This document shows positions 10,493-63,509 of a stretch of 64,000 nt of DNA, piece by piece. Source of the DNA: Parcubacteria group bacterium. Its GTDB lineage: Bacteria; Patescibacteriota; Minisyncoccia; Phycocordibacterales; UBA2135. Positions within the stretch are counted from its first letter, which is position 1, and the number at the start of each line of letters is the position of its first letter. Location: positions 38,395-102,394 of the forward strand of contig JACPBB010000003.1 of assembly GCA_016180525.1 (NCBI GenBank), read 5' to 3'. The notes under the pieces are model-generated. The model worked only from the letters and a program-made list of their open reading frames with translations, ran no database searches and was not told the origin of the DNA. The translations under genes were made by a program, and so were the position numbers.

Positions 10493-10560
10493 TATTTCGG
10501 CTAGCGAGGAACGAAATGAAAATTGGTATTTTCATTTCGTCCGAGCGAAGACGAAATATA
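10493..10560. repeat. Imperfect long hairpin element, copy 1 of a 2-copy family (conserved flanks, variable apical stem)
   Basis: tatttcggctagcgagga-[acgaaatgaaaa ttggta ttttcatttcgt]-ccgagcgaagacgaaata. It is the reverse-complement counterpart of 39775..39839. Confidence 0.6.
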
Positions 10561-37084: not shown

Positions 37085-37171
37085 ATTTTAGTCCTTTGAG
37101 TATAGTACACTTGTGCCGCAAAAGCAAAGAAAAAAACCGCCCGACGTATATCGAAACGGTTGTTGTTTACA

Positions 37172-38161
37172 TTACGCGTGAGTAAGTTTCTGAAGATTCC
37201 GCTCGGCTTCCGCTTTCTTTTCCTCTGCCTTTTGAATTGCAACAAGCCGTGCTCGTTCTTTTGTTCGTACCTTGTGCTCTACAAGCAAAAGAGCTTCTGG
37301 AGAGCCGATGAAACATGCTTCTTCTACGCTCTTAACGAGACGGTGTGCTGAAACGGGATGTTTGTAATCTTTAAGTTCATTTTGAAGCGCAAGTTCTTTC
37401 AATTTTTCTAAAGACTTTTTATCAAGCATGAAGATCCATTTTCGCAATGTATTCAGTTCTCCTAAAGCAGACAAAATTCCAATACTCCATGGTTTGGCAT
37501 ATCCAATAATTGCATCGTCTTCTTCTGATTCCCAGATAAAATGAATGAATTTGCGAAGGAATTGTATTACTTGCTTTTCTTGGTGTGACCTTCTCCCCTC
37601 TTCTTTCACTGGTAAATTTCGTATGACAATATGATCAAAATTTTTTTCCGTTCTAAAAAATTTCTGAACAGCAACAAAAAGATTCGGTGAGTCAGAGGGC
37701 TTGAGCCATTCGTTCCACTTTTCTTCAAAATGTTCATACCACGGGCCCTGCTCATCTAGTTTAAAGAAGTGATCAACGAGCTCGTAAAACGCCTTACGCG
37801 CAACAAACTGACGCAACTCATGCTCTCCAATGGAGTTACGATTGGAACGATTTCCGTGAACATTATAATATTTTAATTCATCAAGACTTTTCCCTTGGGG
37901 GCGAAACAAGAAAGCATCTTCCCAGCCATCAGCAATTGTCAAATAAAATTGAATTCTATCGTGAGAGGAATATTCAGGCTCGCTGTAGTCACATTTATGT
38001 AAAGGAACATCAAATCCCACATGAAGAAGTCCGAGCATTTCATCAAATACATTCGTGGTATTCCAGCGCTGCAACCATTCATGCCAATTCATAATTGGTC
38101 GAATTTCTCGAAAAATAAGAGGTGTAAGTGACTCTATGACGATCTTTGTCGTGGTGGTCAT
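37172..38161 (-). CDS. Hypothetical protein
   Basis: 329 aa, Trp/Glu-rich, C-terminal coiled-coil; no motif. Confidence 0.35.
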   Translation of the reverse strand: MTTTTKIVIESLTPLIFREIRPIMNWHEWLQRWNTTNVFDEMLGLLHVGFDVPLHKCDYSEPEYSSHDRIQFYLTIADGWEDAFLFRPQGKSLDELKYYNVHGNRSNRNSIGEHELRQFVARKAFYELVDHFFKLDEQGPWYEHFEEKWNEWLKPSDSPNLFVAVQKFFRTEKNFDHIVIRNLPVKEEGRRSHQEKQVIQFLRKFIHFIWESEEDDAIIGYAKPWSIGILSALGELNTLRKWIFMLDKKSLEKLKELALQNELKDYKHPVSAHRLVKSVEEACFIGSPEALLLVEHKVRTKERARLVAIQKAEEKKAEAERNLQKLTHA

Positions 38162-38262
38162 GCGGTAGCCTCCGTCTTTGGGTTATGCCCTGTACTGTGA
38201 CAGGACTGGGGTACTCCCACAATCACCTTACTTTATCTGTTTCTCATAAGTCAAGTATTTTT

Positions 38263-38607
38263 CTATTGCTTAAATTCAAATCCAAATATGCCGAACTTTT
38301 GTATTTTTTCAGTGTATCCTGGATATGACACGTACATTTTTTTCATTTCTTCCACAGATTCTACATGAGGCATTATTTTTTTAAATGGAATTTCTTTTAC
38401 CATCGCCTCTATGCTCGGCCAATGATATTTTTTGTTCACTATTTTTGAAAACGAATCCTCCCCGCATACAAACTTTATTCTATCCCCTATGGCAATCGAC
38501 TGATACTTAACCGTTGCCGCCCTCGTTTCTATTTCTTTAGCCCCGCTTTTAAGTTCCTCAAAGCGTGCTTTATCAACTTTTCTAAATCTAAAAATCAATA
38601 TTGTCAT
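38263..38607 (-). CDS. ASCH (PUA-like) domain protein
   Basis: 'LKSGAKEIETRAAT' fits the ASCH G-x-K-x-x-E-x-R core; about 114 aa, the typical size. Confidence 0.5.
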   Translation of the reverse strand: MTILIFRFRKVDKARFEELKSGAKEIETRAATVKYQSIAIGDRIKFVCGEDSFSKIVNKKYHWPSIEAMVKEIPFKKIMPHVESVEEMKKMYVSYPGYTEKIQKFGIFGFEFKQ

Positions 38608-38619
38608 TATTTCAGTATA

Positions 38620-38650
38620 ACAAAACCGCCAATGTATTGGCGGTTATTTC
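38620..38650 (-). terminator. Rho-independent terminator downstream of ltaE
   Basis: Perfect 10-bp stem aaccgccaat-gt-attggcggtt followed on the minus strand by ttttgtta. Confidence 0.55.
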
Positions 38651-38669
38651 ACTATTTAACAGCAGATTT

Positions 38670-39686
38670 TTAATATTTTTTAATATCTTCTATGAGCGCG
38701 GTCACGTCATCTTCAGTCGTATCAAATGAGGCCATGAAACGGCACAAGCCCTTACTGTCCCAATCATAGAAAAACCATTTTCCATGCAACGCACGTAGCT
38801 TATATTCGCCAAAACGAACAAAAACAGAATTCGCCTCTACCGGATATTCGGGAACATATCCAGTCTCTTCGCGCAACGTGCGAGCAAGAAGCGCAGCCAT
38901 TTCATTTGCATGAAGCGCGTTCTTTCTCCACAACTCATTGGAGAGCAGGGCATCAAACTGTGCCGCAATGAATCGTGTTTTTGAAACGGTCTGCATCCCC
39001 TGTTTCTGAATATATTTAAATTTTTCCGCGAGTTCATGTTCAAAAAATATCACCGATTCGGCAAGCATCGCACCATTTTTTGTTCCACCGAAAGAAAGTA
39101 CGTCAACGCCTGAATCTCTTGCAAGTGATAATTTTTCGTTTAAACTGACAACCGCGTTTGCAAAACGAGCCCCATCAATGTGGAAAAGCATTTTATGTTT
39201 GTGCGCGAAATCAGCAAGCGCGCATAATTCTTTACGAGTATAAACCGTTTCAAATTCAGTCGGTTGCGCGACAGAAATAACTTTTGGCTGCGGATGATGT
39301 TTGTCGCCAAAACCGCAGACATGCGGCTCAATGAGCGGAACAGTTAATTTTCCGTTTTCACCATCAATTTGAATCATGGTACAACCGGTAAACTTGCTCG
39401 GGGCACCGCATTCATCCACGTGTAAATGCGAGGTGCGCGCGCAGATAATAGAGTTCCATGATTGTGTACATGCTGATAGCGCAAGCACATTTGCGGCGGT
39501 TCCGGTAGTTACAAAAAAGGTTTCTGCAGTAAGACCAAAATTATCTTTAAACTTCCGCCACACAGACTCGGTATATGGGTCATCACCGTATGCTGGAGTA
39601 TGACCACAGTCTGCTTTTATAATCGCCTCTAAAACTGCAGGATGAATGCCGGAGTTATTATCGCTTCCGAATCCTCGCTCTTGCAT
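38670..39686 (-). CDS. ltaE: Low-specificity L-threonine aldolase (PLP-dependent, beta-eliminating lyase fold)
   Basis: N-terminus 'FGSDNNSGIHPAVLEAI' and the PLP-lysine region 'SFGGTKNGAM' match the threonine aldolase family; 338 aa. Confidence 0.75.
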   Translation of the reverse strand: MQERGFGSDNNSGIHPAVLEAIIKADCGHTPAYGDDPYTESVWRKFKDNFGLTAETFFVTTGTAANVLALSACTQSWNSIICARTSHLHVDECGAPSKFTGCTMIQIDGENGKLTVPLIEPHVCGFGDKHHPQPKVISVAQPTEFETVYTRKELCALADFAHKHKMLFHIDGARFANAVVSLNEKLSLARDSGVDVLSFGGTKNGAMLAESVIFFEHELAEKFKYIQKQGMQTVSKTRFIAAQFDALLSNELWRKNALHANEMAALLARTLREETGYVPEYPVEANSVFVRFGEYKLRALHGKWFFYDWDSKGLCRFMASFDTTEDDVTALIEDIKKY

Positions 39687-39774
39687 TTGTTATATTCCAC
39701 AATGACAATTCTATTAGCATTTCTAGCATACAGAAATAAGTTGTCAAAATTCTTTTTATATATATGATTTTCAT

Positions 39775-39839
39775 ATATTTCGTCTTCGCTCGGACGAAGT
39801 GAGCATACGTGCTCACTTCGCTCCTCGCTAGCCGAAATA
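39775..39839. repeat. Imperfect long hairpin element, copy 2 (reverse orientation) of the 10493..10560 family
   Basis: rc = tatttcggctagcgagga-[gcgaagtgagca cgta tgctcacttcgt]-ccgagcgaagacgaaata. The flanks are identical to copy 1 and the apical stem differs with compensating changes. Confidence 0.6.
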
Positions 39840-39842
39840 AAA

Positions 39843-39880
39843 CAACCCCTCACTCTTTTAGAGCAAGGGGTTATTTTACA
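39843..39880 (-). terminator. Rho-independent terminator candidate downstream of the small ORF 39898..40104
   Basis: aacccct-TGCTCTAAAAGAGTGA-ggggtt followed on the minus strand by gttttatttcgg. Confidence 0.4.
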
Positions 39881-39897
39881 TAAAAATGTTCTTGAGT

Positions 39898-40104
39898 TTA
39901 TTCTGCCACTGCTTCATCTGCCGCTCCGTTATCCATCGCTCCATCATCCGCTGCCATTCCTGCATCTCCCGCTACTGCCGCTCCCTGCTCTACGGTTGCA
40001 TCAGCCGGAACGACATCTGCCGTGCCGTTTCCTTTCAAGAAATACCATCCTCCCGCAATAACAACCACCGCGACGACAACCCAGATAAGTATTTTGTTGT
40101 CCAT
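39898..40104 (-). CDS. Small membrane-anchored protein with Ala/Asp-rich tail, hypothetical
   Basis: 68 aa, N-terminal TM then a low-complexity acidic tail; there is an inverse-strand ORF artefact opposite. Confidence 0.3.
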   Translation of the reverse strand: MDNKILIWVVVAVVVIAGGWYFLKGNGTADVVPADATVEQGAAVAGDAGMAADDGAMDNGAADEAVAE

Positions 40105-40207
40105 ACAAATGCGTTAAAATTAACTATTAATAAGTTTGAAAAAAGTATACACGACCCTTAACAATTTGCAACTCTTTTCAGAAAGATTTTCCTAAAAGCA
40201 TTTTACA

Positions 40208-40393
40208 CTATTTTACTGGAATAACAAAAATGGCGATAAGATACGCGACTAATCCTGGCACAAGACCCGTGAATATAACAATAAGAAGCCAAATAACCCT
40301 CAAAATGACTGGGTCAACGGCTAAATATTCACCGAGACCACCACAAATACCCGCGAACACCTTATTTGTTCTGCTTCTGTACAAATGTTTCAT
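40208..40393 (-). CDS. PspC-domain protein (phage-shock protein C family)
   Basis: 'LYRSRTNKVFAGICGGLGEYLAVDPVILRVIWLL' is the PspC domain signature. The start is taken at the internal MKHLYRS, since the longer ORF overlaps the upstream gene. Confidence 0.6.
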   Translation of the reverse strand: MKHLYRSRTNKVFAGICGGLGEYLAVDPVILRVIWLLIVIFTGLVPGLVAYLIAIFVIPVK

Positions 40394-40400
40394 GGATTTT

Positions 40401-40931
40401 TTATTCACCCTTTTGTTCGCTTTTTCGTGCCTTACCCGTCTTTCTCGCGAGCTGCTCACTCTGTTTTCTGTATGAAAACAGAAACACGATGAGTAACAGC
40501 ACAAATAAAATATGGAGCCCGTATTCGCTCAAAAATGGATATCCGGGAATATACAATTCATAAACCCTCACAAGCAAAACTAAAACAAACAACGCGATAA
40601 ATGTCCTATACATATTGTTTGCCTCCGTGTAGATGTTGATTTTCTCATCTGTTCTCGCGAGCGTGACAAGCTTATCTCCATCAAATGATTTTACAAATGA
40701 AATGTCTTTAAGAATCGGCTCAATAACGAGGGAGCCAAATCTGCTTACCACGAGTCCGGCAAAATAATACACAAAAATGCCGATAATAATGTCTGGATGG
40801 ATGAGCGAATATGAAGTAAATTTTTCAAGCGCGACAACAAACAAAACCCCCGGAAGCAGGTAATTAAAAAGATTATACGAAGTTATTTTGTTTAGAAGGT
40901 CTTTCATCCCGTTTATTATAGCATTAATCAA
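40401..40931 (-). CDS. Hypothetical membrane protein
   Basis: 176 aa, about 4 TM helices. Confidence 0.35.
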   Translation of the reverse strand: MINAIINGMKDLLNKITSYNLFNYLLPGVLFVVALEKFTSYSLIHPDIIIGIFVYYFAGLVVSRFGSLVIEPILKDISFVKSFDGDKLVTLARTDEKINIYTEANNMYRTFIALFVLVLLVRVYELYIPGYPFLSEYGLHILFVLLLIVFLFSYRKQSEQLARKTGKARKSEQKGE

Positions 40932-40963
40932 ATCGTCTACGAGAGTTCCGTTATCCCCTTAAC

Positions 40964-40999
40964 AACATTCCAATCCGCCAGCTGGCGGATTGGAATGTT
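40964..40999. repeat. Perfect 18-bp palindrome, member 1 of the 'AACATTCCAA' palindromic element family
   Basis: aacattccaatccgccag|ctggcggattggaatgtt; it shares its outer arms and flanks (cctta... / ...gttgtatg) with 44760..44789. Confidence 0.6.
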
Positions 41000-41030
41000 G
41001 TATGGTTAAAAAATCGCTTTTCCGTCGTAA

Positions 41031-41735
41031 TCAATTTTTTGCAAACTCCGCGCCGAAACTGTGAATCTTTACAGACTTTTTCCATTTAAAATTCTTGTCT
41101 ATTTTCAATCCCGTTGGTTTTTTAACGACAAAGAATTTTTTCTGAAAAAAATTGAGGCTGTGAGCCAATTGTTGAATTTCAGGCTTGGTGTGCATAAAAC
41201 CAGTGAGTTTTATTTTGCCTAAATTATACTGAACTGTTTGCCCAATTAAGTTTTTGTTTTTAATTTCATAATAATCAGAAGCCACAAAAAGAGACCCTCG
41301 GGGTTTAAGGATCCGATAAAATTCTTTAAATACTGTATGCAAATCTGAAACCTGTGGAAGAGAATAGATAGAGAGAATGATGTCAATTGAATTGGCAGGC
41401 AGTTTTGTTTTTGTAAAATCTCCCTTTTTAACTTCTAAATTAGTGAGATTGAACATTTTCTTCCTTTTTTTAGCCAGATTAAGCATAAAATCACTTATAT
41501 CCATACAAATTACCCTTTTTGCACCTCGCTGTAAGGCAAGGTGGGAAAAATATCCAGAGCCCCCTCCTGCATCAAATATAGTTTTGCCCGACAAATTTTT
41601 AGGAAGAAATTTTAAAAGCTTATCTAAAACTTCACTGTCAATCTTTCCTTCATCTCTAATTTTCTCATGCGCTCTGCCAATCCTGTTATAAAGTTTTCTG
41701 GCGAGTTTTGTAGCTTCTGCTTGAGTAATTTTCAT
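41031..41735 (-). CDS. Class I SAM-dependent methyltransferase
   Basis: Motif I 'IFDAGGGSGYFS', motif II 'RVICMDIS', and post-I acidic residues. Confidence 0.7.
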   Translation of the reverse strand: MKITQAEATKLARKLYNRIGRAHEKIRDEGKIDSEVLDKLLKFLPKNLSGKTIFDAGGGSGYFSHLALQRGAKRVICMDISDFMLNLAKKRKKMFNLTNLEVKKGDFTKTKLPANSIDIILSIYSLPQVSDLHTVFKEFYRILKPRGSLFVASDYYEIKNKNLIGQTVQYNLGKIKLTGFMHTKPEIQQLAHSLNFFQKKFFVVKKPTGLKIDKNFKWKKSVKIHSFGAEFAKN

Positions 41736-41775
41736 AATTTAATTTTTATGCGGAGATTTTTTTATACAGCCATTA

Positions 41776-42738
41776 CTAATACGCTGTCGTAAGAGTGCGG
41801 TGGTATGGCTTATCGTTGGGATTTTTTGTTTGTCCCATGAGCCATAGGTGGTCGTTGATGCCGATTGAAGGAGTCTGCTTGCCGTTTTTACCGAGCTCCG
41901 TTTTCATTTTCTCTACTGCCCAAATGGTGTTTGCCCTAATCTCAACCTCCTCCGAACTGCCATGTGGAATTTGGACAAACGTATCTATTTTTTTCTCAAG
42001 TTCTGTCGCATACGTCAGTATCCCCAGCTTTCTTAAAGATTGTGGCAGTTTATAATCCGCGCACGCGGTAAACTCTTCCAAATGACTTAAATCGCCGAAC
42101 CCCTCAGCGCCAAAAGTTTGGTATATATCTTCAACTAAAAGCTGCGCTCGTTTATAAAAATACACTTTTTTACCTTCATATAAAGAGACGTCTTCAAACG
42201 AGGGGAAATTAGTAATAATAAGGCCAAGTAGTTTTGTAGCATTTCCCTTTGCCGCCTGAACAAATTTTACGAAATTGCCATCGTATTTTTCTAAAAGGAT
42301 GGATGCGACTTCTTTTGTTATTTTCCATCTTTCCTCAAGAAGCGGTATCTCAGCATTCCCCCGAAGTATTTTTTGATACTCTTCTTTACTGATTGCGGAA
42401 CGATACTCTATATCTAAAATAGGCACCCCCTCCTCAATCGCTCGCATTATCGCGGCAATCATACCCCAAGACCCGTCATATCGTTCCCCCTTCCACTCAA
42501 GCGTCCATTTTGGATCGCCCCAATAGCAAAAACTTGTTGAATTAAAAACAAGGAGCAGATTCAGCTTATCAATATCTTTAAGGTGTGAGAATGCGATTGG
42601 TGACCCGCTCAACCAATGCGGAAGATTTCCATGCTGAAATGTCTTACAAAACGTAGCGATGTTCTCATTATTTATTTTGACGCTTTTTGAACTATCAACT
42701 ACAAAACGAGTTGTTTCCAAGATTTTATTCATAACCAC
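41776..42738 (-). CDS. Queuosine salvage family protein (DUF2419/Q_salvage; Q-nucleoside/nucleotide hydrolase-like)
   Basis: Size and blocks 'FCYWGDPKW', 'YFYKRAQLLVEDIY', 'ACADYKLPQSLRKLGIL' resemble the DUF2419 (QNG1/C9orf64) family; recalled from memory, not searched. Confidence 0.5.
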   Translation of the reverse strand: MVMNKILETTRFVVDSSKSVKINNENIATFCKTFQHGNLPHWLSGSPIAFSHLKDIDKLNLLLVFNSTSFCYWGDPKWTLEWKGERYDGSWGMIAAIMRAIEEGVPILDIEYRSAISKEEYQKILRGNAEIPLLEERWKITKEVASILLEKYDGNFVKFVQAAKGNATKLLGLIITNFPSFEDVSLYEGKKVYFYKRAQLLVEDIYQTFGAEGFGDLSHLEEFTACADYKLPQSLRKLGILTYATELEKKIDTFVQIPHGSSEEVEIRANTIWAVEKMKTELGKNGKQTPSIGINDHLWLMGQTKNPNDKPYHRTLTTAY

Positions 42739-42760
42739 AGTATATCAAATTAGAAAATTT

Positions 42761-43219
42761 TTATTGGGTATGCAGAAATTGTTTACTAAACTCCGCGCGG
42801 ATTGCGTCGCGAATGGCAAACAGTTTTTCTTCAGGAAGTTTCAGGTCGGGTTTTATTGGATAATTTTTCCCCCACTGCTCATCTACAAATGTAATGCCAA
42901 GATATGTCCGAGGAGATTTATATCGCGGAATAAAATGCATGTGCCCGTGTCCTTTGTGTTCACGAAACATGTTTCCGAGCCACGCGTAATTCATGTGGTC
43001 AGGTTGCCAGAGATTTCCAAGAACTTTTTCATACTCTTCGGCAATTCTTTTGAGCTCGTTTAATTCTTGAGGAGTTAATTGAGAAAACCTCTGCATTTCG
43101 CCAGGTCGAGAAAGCCACGCGTACGCGCGCCCCAAATAATACTGGTCGTCATGAAGAAAGAGCGTGAAGTGCTCATACTTCTTCAACACAAACGGCTCAT
43201 ACTGCGGCAAATAGGTCAT
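42761..43219 (-). CDS. HIT-family (histidine triad) hydrolase
   Basis: 'HKGHGHMHFIP' is the H-phi-H-phi-H-phi-phi histidine triad. Confidence 0.6.
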   Translation of the reverse strand: MTYLPQYEPFVLKKYEHFTLFLHDDQYYLGRAYAWLSRPGEMQRFSQLTPQELNELKRIAEEYEKVLGNLWQPDHMNYAWLGNMFREHKGHGHMHFIPRYKSPRTYLGITFVDEQWGKNYPIKPDLKLPEEKLFAIRDAIRAEFSKQFLHTQ

Positions 43220-43372
43220 GATTTAGTTTTTATCTTTGCGCTTCATTAGAGTTGGGGTTGAATCAGTGGTTCCAATAAAATAATAAATTGGTGTCAGGTA
43301 CTTTTTATTTTTTCTTAATTCAAAAATACTGTTTTTTAATGTTTATTTTATCCATTCACTAAATAAACTATC

Positions 43373-43696
43373 TCAAATACCAATTTCAATTTTCCACTCC
43401 ATTGGAATCAGGGTTAAGTTTATAGGATATTTAAAATCTGTAGATTGTTTCCAATCCGTAAGCTTTAATTTGAGTTCTTTGATAAGTTTGTCAGCATCTT
43501 TAATTTTCTGCGCGGACATTCTTACAAATATTTCCACAGGAGCAATTTTAACTTTTATATGAGCTGAATTGGTATATGTAAAAACATCTTCTATCCCCGT
43601 AACCTCGGAAACAATATCCCGAACAGCTTTTGATAGAGCTTGTATATCCCCTTCGGAGATCTGCTCATTGTCATATTCAATATTAATCATTGGCAT
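43373..43696 (-). CDS. Hypothetical small protein (possible tautomerase-like, N-terminal Met-Pro)
   Basis: Begins MPMINIEY...; Pro1 after Met removal is the hallmark of tautomerase superfamily members, but this is weak. Very low GC. Confidence 0.3.
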   Translation of the reverse strand: MPMINIEYDNEQISEGDIQALSKAVRDIVSEVTGIEDVFTYTNSAHIKVKIAPVEIFVRMSAQKIKDADKLIKELKLKLTDWKQSTDFKYPINLTLIPMEWKIEIGI

Positions 43697-43720
43697 AATA
43701 TGTGTATTAAAATTCTTATA

Positions 43721-43752
43721 AATTAATTCTCAAATACTGCTTCTATATTATT
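43721..43752. repeat. 32-nt direct repeat, copy 1 (5'-leader/promoter element of 43373..43696)
   Basis: ttaattctcaaatactgcttctatattatttc; 31/32 identical to 44719..44750. Confidence 0.6.
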
Positions 43753-44692
43753 TCTTTGATTTAAAAAGTTGTTTATTAAATTCTTCACGACCCATTGTGT
43801 TTAAAAATTTTATTTTTTCTTTTTCACTTTCAAAATCTCCTTCTTCTCCCCAGCTAATTCCCAGAAGAATAATGAGTTTTAATGCATCAAAAATATGCAG
43901 CCGTTCTTCTGTGTCAAGCACACGATATTTTATATACTCCTCTATGATAAAAGCGGCTTCATATTCCTTAAACCCCCTCTTTGGAGGGAATGCCCACCAA
44001 TATATAAGTCCTGCGACATCATAGATAAGGTAAAAATAAAAACTCATATCAAAATCAAGAACGGCAACAATATCTTTACCTTTAAACAAAAAGTTGCTGT
44101 AATTTAAATCGGCGTGACAAATACCTTTCGGCATACTATTCGGCAACTGTATATCTTCCAATTCATTTTTAAGCCATTGTTCGCGCTTCGGTAAACTTTC
44201 TGTTCGATTCTGTTTGCAATATATTCTCAAACAATAATCAGCATCAAATGGCTCTCTGTCTTTAAAAAATTCAAGTTCATTATTTTTAGTGATGTTGTGC
44301 AGTTGTGCTATTAGTTTTATAACTTCAGCAATTTCTGTTTTGTTAAACGCGTCATTTGGATTTTGGCCGTGCGTGCCTTCAATAAATGCCGTAATCATGT
44401 ACGGCTTTTCTTTATATATTCCAAAAAAATCTCCAGTGCGATTTTTGATTATAGAAAGAACCGGGTAGTTGCTATCTTGCAAAAAATTAATCAGTTGCAC
44501 TTCAAATGCAACGTGTTTTTTTGTTCTGTTTTCGTAGTATCGTAAAACAAATTTTCCTTCGGTGGTTTTTAGAAGAACAGTTGTCTGTCCTGCCCCGCTC
44601 CCAAATGTTTCATAGCCGCAATATTCTCCCACGTCATAGTTTGACAGAATTTCAAGAAAATCATTTTCATTTATGGTAGTTTGTACAGGCAT
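43748..44692 (-). CDS. Aminoglycoside/choline-kinase-type phosphotransferase (APH family)
   Basis: Catalytic loop 'ICHADLNYSNFLF' (H-x-D-x-x-x-x-N) and 'VLDFDMSF' (D-F-D); 314 aa; very low GC. Confidence 0.65.
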   Translation of the reverse strand: MPVQTTINENDFLEILSNYDVGEYCGYETFGSGAGQTTVLLKTTEGKFVLRYYENRTKKHVAFEVQLINFLQDSNYPVLSIIKNRTGDFFGIYKEKPYMITAFIEGTHGQNPNDAFNKTEIAEVIKLIAQLHNITKNNELEFFKDREPFDADYCLRIYCKQNRTESLPKREQWLKNELEDIQLPNSMPKGICHADLNYSNFLFKGKDIVAVLDFDMSFYFYLIYDVAGLIYWWAFPPKRGFKEYEAAFIIEEYIKYRVLDTEERLHIFDALKLIILLGISWGEEGDFESEKEKIKFLNTMGREEFNKQLFKSKK

Positions 44693-44718
44693 AGAAATCG
44701 CTGTCAGATACTTTTTTA

Positions 44719-44750
44719 TTAATTCCCAAATACTGCTTCTATATTATTTC
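44719..44750. repeat. 32-nt direct repeat, copy 2 (5'-leader/promoter element of the APH-like gene)
   Basis: ttaattcccaaatactgcttctatattatttc. Confidence 0.6.
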
Positions 44751-44759
44751 CCTTACTGA

Positions 44760-44789
44760 CATTCCAACATTCTCAAGAATGTTGGAATG
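44760..44789. repeat. Palindromic element, member 2 of the 'AACATTCCAA' family
   Basis: cattccaacattct-ca-agaatgttggaatg (14-bp perfect stem). Confidence 0.6.
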
Positions 44790-44792
44790 TTG

Positions 44793-45128
44793 TTATGTTA
44801 TTTTTCCTCTTTGGAAAAAATTTATGAGGGTTTTATTGGCAAATTTTTTAACATCCTCCGGGGGAGGTTCATAATAAGAAACTTCTACTCTTCCATTTCT
44901 AAAATAAACATAGCCTTGCAATAATATATCACTGAGCTCAATGCCCATTGCGTGGCGTACAAGCGCATGTCCTTCGTGAGAAAGATATAACTTAAAATTT
45001 TTTGTTCCTACAAGCGTAATATCATTTCCGTTTGAAAATCTTTCTTGAACGATTTTCCTGGAAGACCCGACCCCGAATTTAATTTCAAATTCCGGAACAT
45101 ATTCTTTGCTTTCAAAATTTTTTTCCAT
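44793..45128 (-). CDS. Hypothetical protein
   Basis: 111 aa, no motif, low GC. Confidence 0.3.
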   Translation of the reverse strand: MEKNFESKEYVPEFEIKFGVGSSRKIVQERFSNGNDITLVGTKNFKLYLSHEGHALVRHAMGIELSDILLQGYVYFRNGRVEVSYYEPPPEDVKKFANKTLINFFQRGKIT

Positions 45129-45271
45129 TACTTTGAGAATATATTAAAAAAATTATTTATGCAAAATGTTAAATTCCTCTCAATGAAAAAAGGGGCTCAC
45201 ATGTTTTAAATAGTTGACAAATAAACTATAATATATTATAAATTAATTTAGAGGTTCAAAACTACTTCAAG

Positions 45272-46528
45272 GTGCGGCATATGCGGTGGTTTGATGTCAT
45301 CGGACTCATTCTCACTATTTCGGCATTCTTCAGTTTCTTGAATTATAAGTTCTTTAAACTACCCAAAACCGTGGGGCTCATGATTATCTCTCTCGGTTCC
45401 GCATTCTGTCTTATGGGACTTGAAATGATGGGAATTGGTTCAACCGTAAAATTAGCAGAAGCTCTGCACTCCATTAACTTTAGTGAAACACTACTACAAG
45501 GAGTCTTATGTTTCCTGCTATTCGCCGGAGCCCTTCATATTGATATTGGAGATTTTCTTGAACAAAAATGGTCAATTGGTTTTCTCGCCTCTCTGGGTGT
45601 TGTCATATCCGCATTCATTATTGGAGTAGGCGCGTATGTATTGTTTCCGTTATTTGGATTTACACTACCCTTTTTGGTCTGCTTCCTTTTCGGAGCGCTC
45701 ATTTCTCCAACTGACCCAGTCGCGACTCTCGCCATTCTCAAAAACTCAAAAGCCCCAACAAGTATTAAAATGAAAATCGCGGGAGAATCGCTTTTAAATG
45801 ATGGCATGGCAGTTGTGTTGTTCGTGGTGGCGCTTACTCTTCTCAATAATGAAAAAAGCGTATCTTCAATGGATGTCGTAGTGATGTTTGTGCAAGAAGT
45901 ACTCGGGGGTATCGCGTATGGACTTGCTATTGGCTATATTGCCTACGAACTTATTCGGCGCGTTGATGACTATAATGTGGAAATATTACTCTCGCTTTCT
46001 CTCGTGACGGGGGGCTATGCGCTCGCTTCAGTGCTTCATGTTTCAGGACCCCTTGCAATGGCAGTTGCCGGACTCTTTATAGGAAACCATGCCCGAAAAT
46101 ATGGAATGTCCGAAAAAACTCGCAAACATCTTGATATTTTCTGGAATGTCATTGACGATGTTCTCAATGTAATATTGTTTGTCCTTGTTGGACTTGAGGC
46201 GCTACTCATCAACGTAGAGCATGAGTACGCGCTCGCGGGACTTTTTATAATTCCACTCGTACTCTGTGCGCGCTTTATAAGTGTCTCGGCGGGAGCTGTA
46301 CTTTTGCGGCCGCTCAAGCCCTTTAGCCCAAATTCTATCCCCTTGCTAACCTGGGGAGGACTACGCGGCGGCATTTCATTTGCTTTAGCGCTTTCCTTGC
46401 CATATGGGGAAGGACGAGACGCGCTCATTCTTATTACATATATGGTTGTCGTGTTTTCCGTTATTGCGCAAGGGCTCACTATGAATAAAATTTTTGCCTA
46501 CCTTGAAGGCAAAAATAGTGTGTCGTAA
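45272..46528 (+). CDS. Na+/H+ antiporter, CPA1 (NhaP-type) family
   Basis: 12-13 TM helices, 'FGALISPTDPVATLAIL' (the conserved CPA1 TDP region), 418 aa. Confidence 0.8.
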   Translation: MRHMRWFDVIGLILTISAFFSFLNYKFFKLPKTVGLMIISLGSAFCLMGLEMMGIGSTVKLAEALHSINFSETLLQGVLCFLLFAGALHIDIGDFLEQKWSIGFLASLGVVISAFIIGVGAYVLFPLFGFTLPFLVCFLFGALISPTDPVATLAILKNSKAPTSIKMKIAGESLLNDGMAVVLFVVALTLLNNEKSVSSMDVVVMFVQEVLGGIAYGLAIGYIAYELIRRVDDYNVEILLSLSLVTGGYALASVLHVSGPLAMAVAGLFIGNHARKYGMSEKTRKHLDIFWNVIDDVLNVILFVLVGLEALLINVEHEYALAGLFIIPLVLCARFISVSAGAVLLRPLKPFSPNSIPLLTWGGLRGGISFALALSLPYGEGRDALILITYMVVVFSVIAQGLTMNKIFAYLEGKNSVS

Positions 46529-46542
46529 AATTTACAAACACA

Positions 46543-46570
46543 AAGCCCGCTTTTGAGCGGGTTTTTTTGT
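46543..46570 (+). terminator. Rho-independent terminator
   Basis: cccgct-tttg-agcggg followed by ttttttt. Confidence 0.6.
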
Positions 46571-46603
46571 TTTACCTAACTACGGACCGACTAATCTTTG
46601 TTC

Positions 46604-48994: not shown

Positions 48995-49957
48995 TTATTT
49001 TTTCGCTTGTATTTTATTGAGAATTTTTTTTACTTTTTCTAAGCTCTCCCAGTCGTATACGGAGATGGGTGTAACATGTTTATTAAGTTTCTTGAGCGTG
49101 AAAACTTTTTTCTTTACATCAGCAGCCGACACCATGTCACTTTTGCTTAAAAATACATATTCGGGTTTTTTCACAAGCTCTCCGCTATACGTCTTAAGTT
49201 CTTTTTTAATTACTCTGTAATCTTTTACCGGAGTCTTTGATTCCGCGGATATAAGGTGAAAAAGAATTTTTGTACGCTCAACATGACGCAAAAATTTCAT
49301 GCCCAAGCCCTTGCCGGAAGAAGCGCCTTCAATAAGTCCGGGAATGTCGGCGATAATAAGTTCATAATACACTCCAAGGTTCGGCTCAAGCGTGGTAAAC
49401 GCGTAATTCGCCACCTTACTTTTTGCTTTGGTAAGTTCATTAAGTAAGCTTGATTTTCCGGCATTTGGCAGTCCGATTAATCCCACGTCGGCAATAAGTT
49501 TTAAATTGAGACGCACCGTGAAATGCTCTCCAAGTAACCCTTCTTGAAATTGCCGCGGGCTCGTGTTTTTTGATGAACGAAAGAGGAAATTCCCTTTTCC
49601 CCCATGCCCGCCTTTTGCGACGAGAATTTTTTCACCGACTTTAAGCAATTCCCAAACTTCATTTGTCTCAACCTTTGTGATAACTGTCCCTACGGGTATT
49701 TTTAATATAAGATCATCGCCATCGGCTCCGTCGTTGCATTGCGCCTTGCCATTCTCTCCTCCTTCTGCTTTTTGGTCTTTTTCATATCTAAATTGATCAA
49801 GCGAACCAAGATCAGAAACGCCTTCAAAATAGACACTGCCGCCAGCGCCCCCGGAGCCACCAGTCGGCCCCAGACTCATTGCCTGCTTATTAAAAGCAAC
49901 GGCTCCCCTGCCGCCGTTTCCCGCAGAGACTTTTATGGTTACATCGTCAATTAACAT
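48995..49957 (-). CDS. obg: GTPase Obg/CgtA
   Basis: Obg-fold N-terminus 'DDVTIKVSAGNGGRGAVAF' with Gly-rich repeats; G-domain 'GLPNAGKSSLL', 'DIPGLIEGA', 'SKSD'. Confidence 0.85.
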   Translation of the reverse strand: MLIDDVTIKVSAGNGGRGAVAFNKQAMSLGPTGGSGGAGGSVYFEGVSDLGSLDQFRYEKDQKAEGGENGKAQCNDGADGDDLILKIPVGTVITKVETNEVWELLKVGEKILVAKGGHGGKGNFLFRSSKNTSPRQFQEGLLGEHFTVRLNLKLIADVGLIGLPNAGKSSLLNELTKAKSKVANYAFTTLEPNLGVYYELIIADIPGLIEGASSGKGLGMKFLRHVERTKILFHLISAESKTPVKDYRVIKKELKTYSGELVKKPEYVFLSKSDMVSAADVKKKVFTLKKLNKHVTPISVYDWESLEKVKKILNKIQAKK

Positions 49958-49980
49958 GAAAAATTATTATTTGTTAAAAA

Positions 49981-50010
49981 CATTCCAACATTCTATAGAA
50001 TATTGGAATG
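49981..50010. repeat. Palindromic element, member 3 of the 'AACATTCCAA' family; flanked by A5/T6 runs (bidirectional terminator-like)
   Basis: aaaaa-cattccaacattcta-t-agaatattggaatg-tttttt (one mismatch in the stem). Confidence 0.55.
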
Positions 50011-50055
50011 TTTTTTGCCAATTTGTTAAAGTTAACAATTTAGATTTTTTATACA

Positions 50056-50418
50056 CTACTCGTCACAAGCCAAGCCGTTCTGATCTTTATCTAAATAAAA
50101 AATATCGGTCCCAAGCACCTCTACTTTTCCAGTATAATTTGGTCCGTCTCCACCGCTTCCGTCGCAATCATAATCACCAATGTCGTCTAGGAGACAGCCG
50201 GAGTAATTAGGGTTGCATAGGCGCACTCCGCCAGAATTTGTTGAGCTCTGCGAAGAGCGTCGCGGAAGCAAAATTCTCTCATCTTGGACCGGTTTAACGG
50301 TATTTGACTGCTCCTCCTGCGGGAGTTCAGGCGGCTTGCTTAAAATCACCATAATAGCGAACAACATACCGGCAAGGCCTAAACTAAATAAAATTATGAG
50401 AACTTGATTTTTAAACAT
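50056..50418 (-). CDS. Secreted protein with Excalibur-like calcium-binding motif
   Basis: Signal anchor plus 'DYDCDGSGGDG' and 'DKDQNGLACDE' (D-x-D-x-D-G-x-x-C-E). Confidence 0.45.
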   Translation of the reverse strand: MFKNQVLIILFSLGLAGMLFAIMVILSKPPELPQEEQSNTVKPVQDERILLPRRSSQSSTNSGGVRLCNPNYSGCLLDDIGDYDCDGSGGDGPNYTGKVEVLGTDIFYLDKDQNGLACDE

Positions 50419-51167: not shown

Positions 51168-51359
51168 ATAAAAGCACTTCGTCTTATATAAGCTCCTCGG
51201 CTCAGAAATGAAAAATCTGATGAATTTTTCATTTCTCTCACTCTACGTCGCTTATAAATAGAGAATACATTTAATTATCCTTAAAATACACCAAAAATCA
51301 AGGAATACTTATCGTATAGAAAATCCCCACATCTATGTATAAGATGCGGGGACAAAAAA

Positions 51360-63416: not shown

Positions 63417-63509
63417 TGGTAGGCCTGGAGGGATTCGAACCCCCAACCGTGCGCCGATCTAGCGCTCATGGATCATAAATCCACCGCTCTGCCGTTGAGC
63501 TACAGGCCC
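63417..63509 (-). tRNA. Atypical 93-nt tRNA: canonical acceptor/D/T arms and CCA, anticodon loop TTTATGA (anticodon TAT, Ile-AUA-type) plus a 23-nt variable-region insertion
   Basis: GGGCCTG-TA-GCTC-AACGGCA-GAGC-G-GTGGA-TTTATGA-TCCAT-[GAGCGCTAGATCGGCGCACGGTT]-GGGGG-TTCGAAT-CCCTC-CAGGCCT-A-CCA. Confidence 0.5.

Follow-up and report, generated by a model that had tools for sequence, protein, structure and literature searches.

Within a 64-kb window (64,000 nt, the whole stretch of DNA analyzed) of the genome of a Parcubacteria group bacterium, three intergenic palindromes, designated copies 1 to 3, were characterized. With a probability of roughly 0.55, these palindromes are solo members of a horizontally spreading palindromic repeat family, which is the putative binding site of an 88-amino-acid (aa) winged-helix protein. 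First, the three copies belong to a repeat family with a defined consensus and a patchy distribution, mostly among Patescibacteria, i.e., the candidate phyla radiation (CPR). Second, the gene of the winged-helix protein is bracketed by copies of the element in other genomes. Third, the two arms of the element change in concert, and the copies are placed mainly just behind genes and occasionally in-frame inside them. Loci and contigs from other genomes are given by L numbers.

Three Palindromes with a Common Outer Arm

Copy 1 (40962-41001), the 'GC-core' variant, was delimited by sequence inspection and a repeat finder as a perfect 40-bp palindrome with 20-bp arms and zero spacer (ac-AACATTCCAA-TCCGCCAG/CTGGCGGA-TTGGAATGTT-gt, the slash marking the center). 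Copy 2 (44759-44790) represents the canonical 32-bp element, with perfect 15-bp arms and the 2-nt center CA (ACATTCCAACATTCT-CA-AGAATGTTGGAATGT). Copy 3 is also canonical except for one G/A arm mismatch; its core spans 49980-50011, and 49976-50015 if the A4/T4 flanks are included (aaaa-ACATTCCAACATTCT-AT-AGAATATTGGAATGT-tttt). No strand is assigned to any of the three. The initial annotation of this DNA, made from the letters alone, had correctly recognized all three palindromes, 1-2 nt off the boundaries given here. It had assigned 18-bp arms to copy 1 (40964-40999) and 14-bp arms to copy 2 (44760-44789), both slightly short of the full extent, and the A5 and T6 that it reported beside copy 3 correspond to the A4/T4 flanks with the outermost core base at each end included.

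The arms common to copies 1 to 3 are ACATTCCAA/TTGGAATGT. The exact 9-mer ACATTCCAA occurred seven times on both strands of the window, with 0.80 occurrences expected, and none of 100 dinucleotide-preserving shuffles reached seven. Six of the seven occurrences were the arms of copies 1 to 3. The common outer arm proposed before was thereby confirmed, and a chance origin of the palindromes was ruled out by this enrichment (7 vs. 0.8 expected). The census that had been suggested, of a 10-mer with at most one mismatch, was uninformative, with 11 matches vs. 9.3 expected. The flanks cctta and gttgt(t)atg, described as shared by copies 1 and 2, are indeed present, but conservation ended at position +3 in 178 family flanks, where only +1 (T), +3 (T) and their mirror images were conserved. 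Thus, the likeness of these flanks mostly reflects the extended consensus plus chance.

Each of the three copies is intergenic, with minus-strand genes of the same orientation on either side. A class-I methyltransferase gene (41031-41735, minus strand) ends 30 nt ahead of copy 1, and the next minus-strand ORF (open reading frame; 40401-40931, encoding a 176-aa membrane protein) begins 31-57 nt beyond the copy. For copy 2, a 111-aa ORF (44793-45128, minus strand) ends 2 nt before the element, and an APH-family kinase gene (43748-44692, minus strand) starts 66 nt after it. Copy 3 follows the stop of a 120-aa ORF (50056-50418, minus strand) by 44 nt and precedes the obg start codon by 22 nt (obg 48995-49957, minus strand; start at 49957). 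It had previously been placed between obg and the downstream gene; it is in fact upstream of the obg start, behind the 120-aa ORF. At gathering thresholds, Rfam matched three tRNAs in the window and no RNA family at the palindromes.

Consensus and Distribution of the Repeat Family

The core of the family is (AACATTCY)2-NN-(RGAATGTT)2, 32 bp in length, with two tandem 8-mers per arm, AACATTCC followed by AACATTCT. A scan of one genome per species with the pattern ACATTCCAA-N(2-30)-TTGGAATGT yielded at least 120 loci, about 250 chance matches being estimated for such a collection. Among the matches listed, 62 of 127 were the identical 32-mer ACATTCCAACATTCT-NN-AGAATGTTGGAATGT, as in copy 2. Carriers of this 32-mer were almost all Patescibacteria (Saccharibacteria, Paceibacteria, Nomura-, Kaiser-, Giovannoni-, Brenner-, Liptonbacteria and others); a few were metagenome-assembled genomes (MAGs) labeled Kiritimatiellia, Verrucomicrobia or Bdellovibrionales.

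Variants such as copy 1 retained the outer arms with an exchanged GC-rich center. The 34-nt core of copy 1 was found identically in the unrelated MAG L063 and, as a loop variant, twice in the closest Obg relative L129; further cores occurred in L067 and L074, and the spacing of the outer arms ranged from N14 to N24. The reverse variant, with retained inner 8-mers and a different outer arm, was present in L156. The flanks often lengthened the stem, by 2.5 bp on average vs. 1.2 bp in a re-paired control, and their profile was a symmetric A/T-rich extension (AAmA...TkTT). The element measured 32-42 bp. In the genome under study, three copies were present in about 80 kb, and these were single, not paired.

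Locus L041, which harbors the winged-helix gene with two copies, belongs to a genuine Kiritimatiellia genome of the Planctomycetes-Verrucomicrobia-Chlamydiae (PVC) group, its PolX homologs carrying Kiritimatiellaeota, Verrucomicrobia or Lentisphaerae names at 76-90% identity. Its winged-helix protein was 83-94% identical to those of CPR bacteria. Therefore, horizontal transfer between CPR and PVC bacteria has to be assumed. No instance of the element was found in viral contigs, phage records or plasmid records, and a phage or plasmid origin was rejected for this reason. The winged-helix protein itself matched only ArsR proteins at 32-41% identity among plasmids and nothing among phages. In literature text, no paper containing the 15-mer arm was found, 10-mer matches came from unrelated eukaryotic papers, and nothing relevant was retrieved for palindromes of Patescibacteria, for transcription factors of CPR bacteria or for LexA motifs. 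The repeat family is apparently without known description.

A Winged-Helix Gene Is Bracketed by Copies of the Palindrome

When the ORFs near the copies were clustered, the sole recurrent neighbor was a protein of 88-95 aa (MKTPKQLERYFKGAANHRRIAIL...NFKTISQHTRSLVQAGLLNKKYRGRQVAHSLSPYGKSFLKFMKTF). At the loci found by the DNA pattern, 10 of 10 winged-helix genes had a copy ending 15-52 nt ahead of the ATG. Three further loci are independent of the DNA motif because they were chosen by protein identifier; an upstream copy was present in all three, at 8-28 nt, giving a total of 13 of 13 loci (8-52 nt). A second copy overlapped or followed the stop codon in 12 of the 13, i.e., the gene was bracketed by the element. 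All family members end in (K/R)TF*, a terminus derived from ACA TTC TAA within the stop-site copy. In addition, copies clustered by the winged-helix gene, with four in 6 kb in L006, six in 8 kb in L067 and four in 8 kb in L120. For the operator considered in the initial annotation, this linkage is direct support from data that were beyond its reach.

Related genes followed the same layout with other sequences. A sister subfamily (L136, L073) had a separate variant of the palindrome ahead of its gene, CTATTCCARTGTTYT, arranged as 15-2-15 in L136; L136 also had a copy at the stop, and none was seen past the stop in L073. At distant ArsR-like genes, unrelated long palindromes occupied the same position, in L076 as a 12-2-12 repeat that recurred over the stop and in L032 as a palindrome of 46 bp. 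A joint change of protein subfamily and palindrome of this kind is usually explained by a protein and the site that it binds. Candidates for -35 and -10 elements at the winged-helix genes were inconsistent between loci, and the statement is therefore limited to an overlap of the copy with the upstream region.

By its predicted fold, the 88-aa protein appears to be an ArsR/SmtB-like winged helix with a sequence score below the family cut-offs. The score against NF033788 was 33.9 bits with a cut-off of 55, and the match to Pfam HTH_5 was not significant for the first protein scanned and reached 21.3 bits vs. 22 for the second. The nearest solved relatives were CadC, ArsR and HlyU, with E-values of about 1e-3. 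The AlphaFold2 (AF2) model had a pLDDT of 86.6 and the fold a1-a2-a3-aR-b1-b2-a5. Foldseek aligned it to ArsR, CadC, SmtB, CzrA and HlyU with TM-scores of 0.62-0.69 (normalized to target length), and NolR and MarR were also among the structure matches. The consensus contains no cysteine and no metal-site motif. At 90% identity, the family falls into at least 1039 clusters, which carry nothing but generic regulator names.

Two other assignments were tried. The 88-aa ORFs of the close relatives L209 and L211 were rejected as regulators, since they encode membrane proteins. A LexA box is unlikely, because the LexA gene in L125 has no upstream copy.

Some features of the winged-helix loci were recorded besides. 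In L125-L127, defense islands (restriction-modification, CBASS/SMODS, AbiE, AIPR, HEPN/MNT) lay beside the winged-helix gene, 0-10 kb upstream, and the stress and repair genes TspO, Zincin_1, MsrA/B, pyrimidine-dimer endonuclease and UvrABC were found downstream. Many contigs with a winged-helix gene were just 0.5-1.5 kb long, and three of the four Logan short-read contigs carrying the obg of the window (L122-L124) stop about 49 nt upstream of obg, i.e., at copy 3. Both observations fit assembly breaks at the repeat.

Placement of the Copies and the Regulon Explanation

With respect to neighboring genes, 30 copies were in tandem, 11 in convergent and four in divergent context, three of the latter four being the winged-helix gene's own upstream region. 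The median distance to the preceding stop was about 23 nt, with ten copies within 7 nt, and the median distance to the next start was about 50 nt; copies were commonly found 0-45 nt past stop codons. The element was inserted in-frame in at least three genes (TsaD, PGK and PrmC) and probably in six. In TsaD, the encoded peptide EHSNILENVGMS coincided with a clean 13-residue gap relative to TsaD of E. coli (4wq5), and PGK and PrmC had extra residues at the element. Further candidates are the genes for a PurL-like protein, a glycosyltransferase and an FAD oxidase, and five of the six cases read in the frame HSNILxNVGM.

The genes flanking the copies (39 downstream and 45 upstream, classified by Pfam) were diverse, those upstream being housekeeping genes and those downstream having no theme. 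Only TspO, NUDIX and MTES_1575/DUF559 recurred downstream, twice each. For Zincin_1, one scanned member matched, and the gene recurs beside copies in L127 and L211. A coherent regulon was rejected owing to the diversity in this downstream census.

The distribution among relatives was patchy. In 819 kb around obg from 80 relatives (Obg 62-79% identical), copies were present in L129, L156 and L138 only. Among the relatives with 86-87% identical TypA, L211 had copies behind obg and ahead of the Zincin_1 gene and L209 had none; L212 and L213 (TypA 77% identical) had none either. The site of copy 3 before obg was shared only with L156, where a variant palindrome is located 14 nt ahead of obg; its outer arm differs by three compensated changes, and the gene upstream is a different one. 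In L211, the slot before obg is occupied by a canonical GC hairpin followed by TTT. Copies 1 and 2 fall inside a stretch of about 9.5 kb (37.1-46.6 kb) that is missing between typA and the DEAD-box helicase gene in L156 and L211. This block (37100-46600) encodes a Na+/H+ antiporter, the 111-aa ORF, the APH kinase, queuosine salvage, the methyltransferase and others, and it looks like an accessory island.

These data bear on the alternative that the copies are plain regulon operators, i.e., that a dimeric or tetrameric winged-helix repressor binds the duplex and controls the downstream genes, spread and hairpins being irrelevant. The targets in the window would be the 176-aa membrane protein, the APH-to-methyltransferase operon and the obg operon. 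The upstream copy in 13 of 13 loci, the joint change of protein subfamily and palindrome variant, and the resemblance of the 15-2-15 layout to the 12-2-12 operators of ArsR/SmtB proteins all speak for operators, as does the variant of L156, which occupies the orthologous place before obg even though the upstream gene differs. The dimeric operator considered in the initial annotation is supported to this extent. On the other hand, convergent gene ends flank 11 copies, a position devoid of promoters, some copies are in-frame inside genes, the downstream genes share no common function, and the sites are missing in close relatives. Moreover, a protein dimer does not need the concerted change seen in the arms, and among the variants the distance between the outer half-sites ranges from 14 to 24 nt. 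A plain regulon is insufficient because copies also occur between convergent genes and inside genes, and as a full account it is unlikely.

Arm Symmetry, Hairpins and Termination

Comparison of 90 distinct copies revealed double changes, i.e., changes on both sides, in 18 of 22 stem pairs. The covariation score was 0.206, compared to 0.120 for shuffles (0 of 500 reached the observed value) and 0.06-0.12 for slid controls. At pair 15-34, for instance, CG was present in 68 copies, UA in 17, UG in four and another combination in one, with 17 double vs. five single changes. Several different symmetric variants existed within one genome in L006 and in L067, and stems were extended by flanks that are not conserved (e.g., cccgca/tgcggg and ttagcc/ggctaa). 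This concerted change of the arms reflects either selection for a folded hairpin or cruciform, or a copy mechanism that regenerates one arm from the other. For a protein dimer, arms that change in concert would not be required.

Two tests addressed the direction of transcription. G.U and A.C mismatches had no sense-strand bias (8 vs. 10), and a T-run was found in sense direction in 13 of 53 copies and in antisense direction in 23 of 53. Neither test gave a signal for RNA-only selection, which was dismissed accordingly.

In the window, the RNA hairpins of copies 1 to 3 had folding energies of -18 to -34 kcal/mol and z-scores from -4.5 to -7.6. Copy 1 formed the most stable one (-34 kcal/mol, z = -7.6), with no T-run on either side. 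Copy 2 reached -19 to -21 kcal/mol, with no T-run in sense (minus) direction. In copy 3, the mismatch gives a G.U pair on minus-strand RNA (-22 kcal/mol) and A.C on plus-strand RNA (-18 kcal/mol), and it alone had T-runs on both sides (TTTTT on the minus strand). Thus, a stable hairpin past the stop was present in all three cases (at 30, 2 and 44 nt) and a U-tract only at copy 3, which is therefore the only credible intrinsic terminator among them.

The copies might accordingly be thought to be ordinary intrinsic, possibly bidirectional, terminators or mRNA 3'-end stabilizing hairpins that merely share a stem sequence. Their position 0-45 nt past stops, the frequent convergent contexts and the strong hairpins would agree with this, as would the A-run and T-run of copy 3 and the canonical hairpin with TTT in the corresponding slot of L211. 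Ordinary canonical terminators are also used elsewhere in the window. Terminators, however, do not keep an identical 32-nt sequence across classes and phyla. Sense T-runs (13 of 53) are outnumbered by antisense ones, copies 1 and 2 have none, the mismatch test lacks a strand bias, copies occur in-frame inside essential genes, and the linkage to the winged-helix gene is left unexplained. As an account of the family, termination is very unlikely; the bidirectional terminator proposed earlier for copy 3 is plausible for that copy, with its T-run on each side, but does not extend to the family.

Putative Mobility of the Element

The spread of the element also calls for comparison with mobile repeats. 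The initial annotation had likened the palindromes to repetitive extragenic palindromic (REP) sequences and bacterial interspersed mosaic elements (BIME) or to miniature inverted-repeat transposable elements (MITE). Dispersal, spreading, and conserved termini with a variable core were indeed observed, but strict membership in either class was not. Under such an explanation, a REP/BIME (REPIN) would be mobilized by a REP-associated tyrosine transposase (RAYT), or a classical MITE in trans by the transposase of an insertion sequence. Short, mostly extragenic palindromes with a bias to gene 3' ends, the behavior of a spreading element, and a gene placed between two copies, much like a RAYT gene between REPs, are in favor. 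Yet the search for a RAYT that had been suggested found no transposase: none, Y1/HUH or other, was detected by Pfam among the 39 downstream and 45 upstream genes (about 84 in total) or among the called genes of three 20-kb winged-helix loci. The bracketed gene is a winged-helix regulator instead. No GTAG-like 5' tetranucleotide next to the stem was found in the flank profiles, no target-site duplication of at least 3 nt was present, the copies are single, and the whole element is an inverted repeat without internal sequence. Mobilization by either kind of transposase is, therefore, highly improbable.

Just as hard to credit are site-specific recombination sites bounding gene cassettes (serine-recombinase crossover sites with a 2-bp center, or integron attC). 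In favor are the likeness of the 15-2-15 layout, whose two central bases vary, to hix/res site I, the bracketing of the winged-helix gene, and the 3.8-kb five-gene block that copies 1 and 2 enclose in the 9.5-kb stretch missing from L156 and L211. On the other side, no recombinase or integrase was found among the flanking genes scanned, and the extrahelical bases typical of attC are missing from these perfect palindromes. The copies that are in-frame inside genes, and the location of the housekeeping genes obg and typA between copies 2 and 3, are further objections.

Hence, the initial annotation is partly supported: each of its three readings (REP- or MITE-like repeat, terminator, operator) captures a part of the data, and none fits alone.

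Proposed Mechanism and Its Significance

The explanation preferred here, a spreading palindromic repeat that serves as the putative site of the winged-helix protein, would work as follows. The 'home' of the family is the winged-helix gene, with one copy over its putative promoter region and a second copy over or just past its stop. If the palindrome is the protein's DNA site, the protein would repress its own gene. Further copies would arise by some copy mechanism that keeps both arms identical, and they would survive where they do little harm, i.e., just past stops, between convergent genes and occasionally in-frame inside genes. The copies in the window mark three boundaries between minus-strand transcription units; they would fold into strong hairpins when transcribed and would also be bound by the winged-helix protein if this genome encodes it.

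Several points weigh against this explanation. No winged-helix homolog was detected in the 64-kb window by six-frame hmmsearch or in 16 kb of adjoining Logan contigs, and the link of copies 1 to 3 to the protein therefore rests on other genomes. The evidence for protein binding is confined to the linkage between gene and site, and outer half-sites 14 to 24 nt apart among the variants are a poor fit to a single fixed dimer on duplex DNA. As to the spread, no enzyme able to move the element was found among the flanking genes scanned, and no target-site duplication was seen, direct repeats of at least 3 nt being absent at boundary offsets 0-7 in 89 copies. Copy numbers per genome are rough estimates from the scan of at least 120 loci; outside the vicinity of the winged-helix gene, for example, about one additional copy was counted per 100 kb, a low figure also for a REP or MITE. 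Finally, gene context was taken from our own greedy ORF calls, which initially placed 16 of 68 copies inside genes; eight of the 16 were re-examined.

A bolder variant, which must be considered quite unlikely, regards the palindrome and its 88-aa partner as a selfish 'spreading operator' that manages without a transposase. In one version, the protein would recognize the folded or duplex palindrome and recruit host replication or repair, whereby the palindrome would be copied to new sites with identical arms. In the other, the protein bound to the DNA of gene-end copies would delimit or terminate transcription in a sequence-specific manner, a role for which, to our knowledge, there is no established bacterial precedent.

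The genomes of CPR bacteria (Patescibacteria) are tiny and streamlined, and regulators and recognized mobile elements are scarce in them. If the repeat and its putative binding protein are confirmed as proposed, a repeat would be multiplying without a recognizable transposase, which would bear on the question of how REP- and RPE-like elements (the latter from Rickettsia, see below) move. The pair would be the first regulator-site pair for a widespread, uncharacterized CPR protein family (at least 1039 clusters at 90% identity). The copies would be practical markers of operon boundaries, coinciding with assembly breaks, and would document gene flow between CPR and PVC bacteria.

Further Palindromes and a tRNA Gene

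Apart from copies 1 to 3, a second pair of palindromes was noted in the window, at 10513-10538 and 51205-51235, with GAAATGAAAA...TTTTCATTTC in common (two matches vs. 0 expected in shuffles). This pair may be another small palindrome family of this genome. The slot upstream of obg held other perfect, lineage-specific palindromes, namely CCTGCCTGCC/GGCAGGCAGG (center at the slash) and GGTTTAATAAT-AAC-ATTATTAAACC. They were found in L135-L137 and L148, about 57-68 nt before obg, and also in L159, L161 and L163. Each CPR lineage may have palindrome families of its own.

Palindromes were also encountered outside the CPR. A 29-nt family in Bacteroidota, (G)ACATTCCAAGTYT-N3-ARACTTGGAATGT(C), shares the outer 9-mer and was present in L002, L039, L045, L051, L056, L075, L077, L099 and L108, its hosts being Runella, Arcicella, Spirosomataceae, Tannerella, Symbiothrix and Reichenbachiellaceae, and no winged-helix homolog was nearby. 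In the gammaproteobacterial MAG JAHJDE01, palindromes with the core ctaACATTCCAACAWWTGTTGGAATGTtag were located at 930-953 and 3003-3026 of L015 and at 2223-2246 of L037. Those of L015 had complementary outer flanks of 9-12 bp that differ between the copies, so that a conserved center is combined with a variable outer stem. Small hairpins built as gcaACATTCCAA-N4-TTGGAATGTtgc occurred in Bacillota MAGs, at 43-64 and 98-119 of L110, 55 nt apart, and also in L020 and L065; they may form a tandem hairpin array.

Among the tRNA genes of the window, a tRNA-Ile with anticodon UAU (63417-63509, minus strand) was 93 nt long according to ARAGORN, and Rfam aligned 90 nt to the 71-position tRNA model. 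It may contain an intron or insert, and it is an unusual isoacceptor.

Comparison with Known Systems

With the ArsR/SmtB repressors (SmtB, CzrA, CadC, HlyU, NolR), the system described here has in common the fold and size of the protein and a long inverted repeat with a 2-bp center over the gene's own upstream region. In contrast to their 12-2-12 sites, the site here is 15-2-15 and perfectly symmetric, it occurs at gene ends and inside genes, and it defines no coherent regulon; moreover, the protein scores below the curated thresholds and has neither cysteine nor a metal-site motif. CIRCE, the site of HrcA, is an inverted repeat conserved across phyla that acts as a repressor operator and as an mRNA hairpin. 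It is found at fixed orthologous promoters (groE, dnaK), is not known to spread or to occur inside genes, and has arms 9 nt apart. The family described here is likewise conserved in sequence across phyla, but it spreads, occurs inside genes, and mostly occupies non-orthologous positions.

Inverted pairs of the DNA uptake sequence (DUS) of Neisseria occupy the terminator slot, DUS being present about once per kb and serving DNA uptake. SPRITE of S. pneumoniae is a terminator-like repeat family (PMC10969869). As with SPRITE and inverted DUS, a repeated sequence that folds as a hairpin is found here in the terminator slot after genes; unlike them, it is linked to a winged-helix gene, is also found in-frame inside genes, and is mostly devoid of a sense T-run.

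The similarity to the REP/REPIN-RAYT systems of Enterobacteria and Pseudomonas extends to hairpin-forming palindromes of 30-40 nt, their extragenic location at gene 3' ends, and the bracketing of a dedicated gene. REP/REPIN are imperfect palindromes with a GTAG-like 5' tetranucleotide, have tens to hundreds of copies, and are often arranged as inverted pairs or clusters. Here, the palindromes are perfect, low in copy number, single instead of paired, and have no GTAG-type guide. The bracketed gene encodes an 88-aa ArsR-like protein and not a Y1/HUH transposase (RAYT, PF01797), some copies are in-frame inside genes, and the family crosses phyla. The element differs from a MITE in having no terminal repeats around an internal sequence and no target-site duplication.

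Rickettsia palindromic elements (RPE) are about 100-150 bp long and form ten families restricted to Rickettsia (PMC10969869). As in the present case, they are palindromic repeats of a reduced genome that are inserted in-frame in unrelated housekeeping genes and add a conserved peptide (PMC10969869), and no transposase is known for either. The element described here differs from RPE in being 32-42 bp long and mostly intergenic, in its linkage to a gene for a DNA-binding protein, and in its occurrence in Patescibacteria and Kiritimatiellia. Taken together, the most fitting description is that of a dispersed palindromic repeat resembling REP or RPE in its behavior, with an ArsR-like winged-helix regulator instead of a transposase as its partner.

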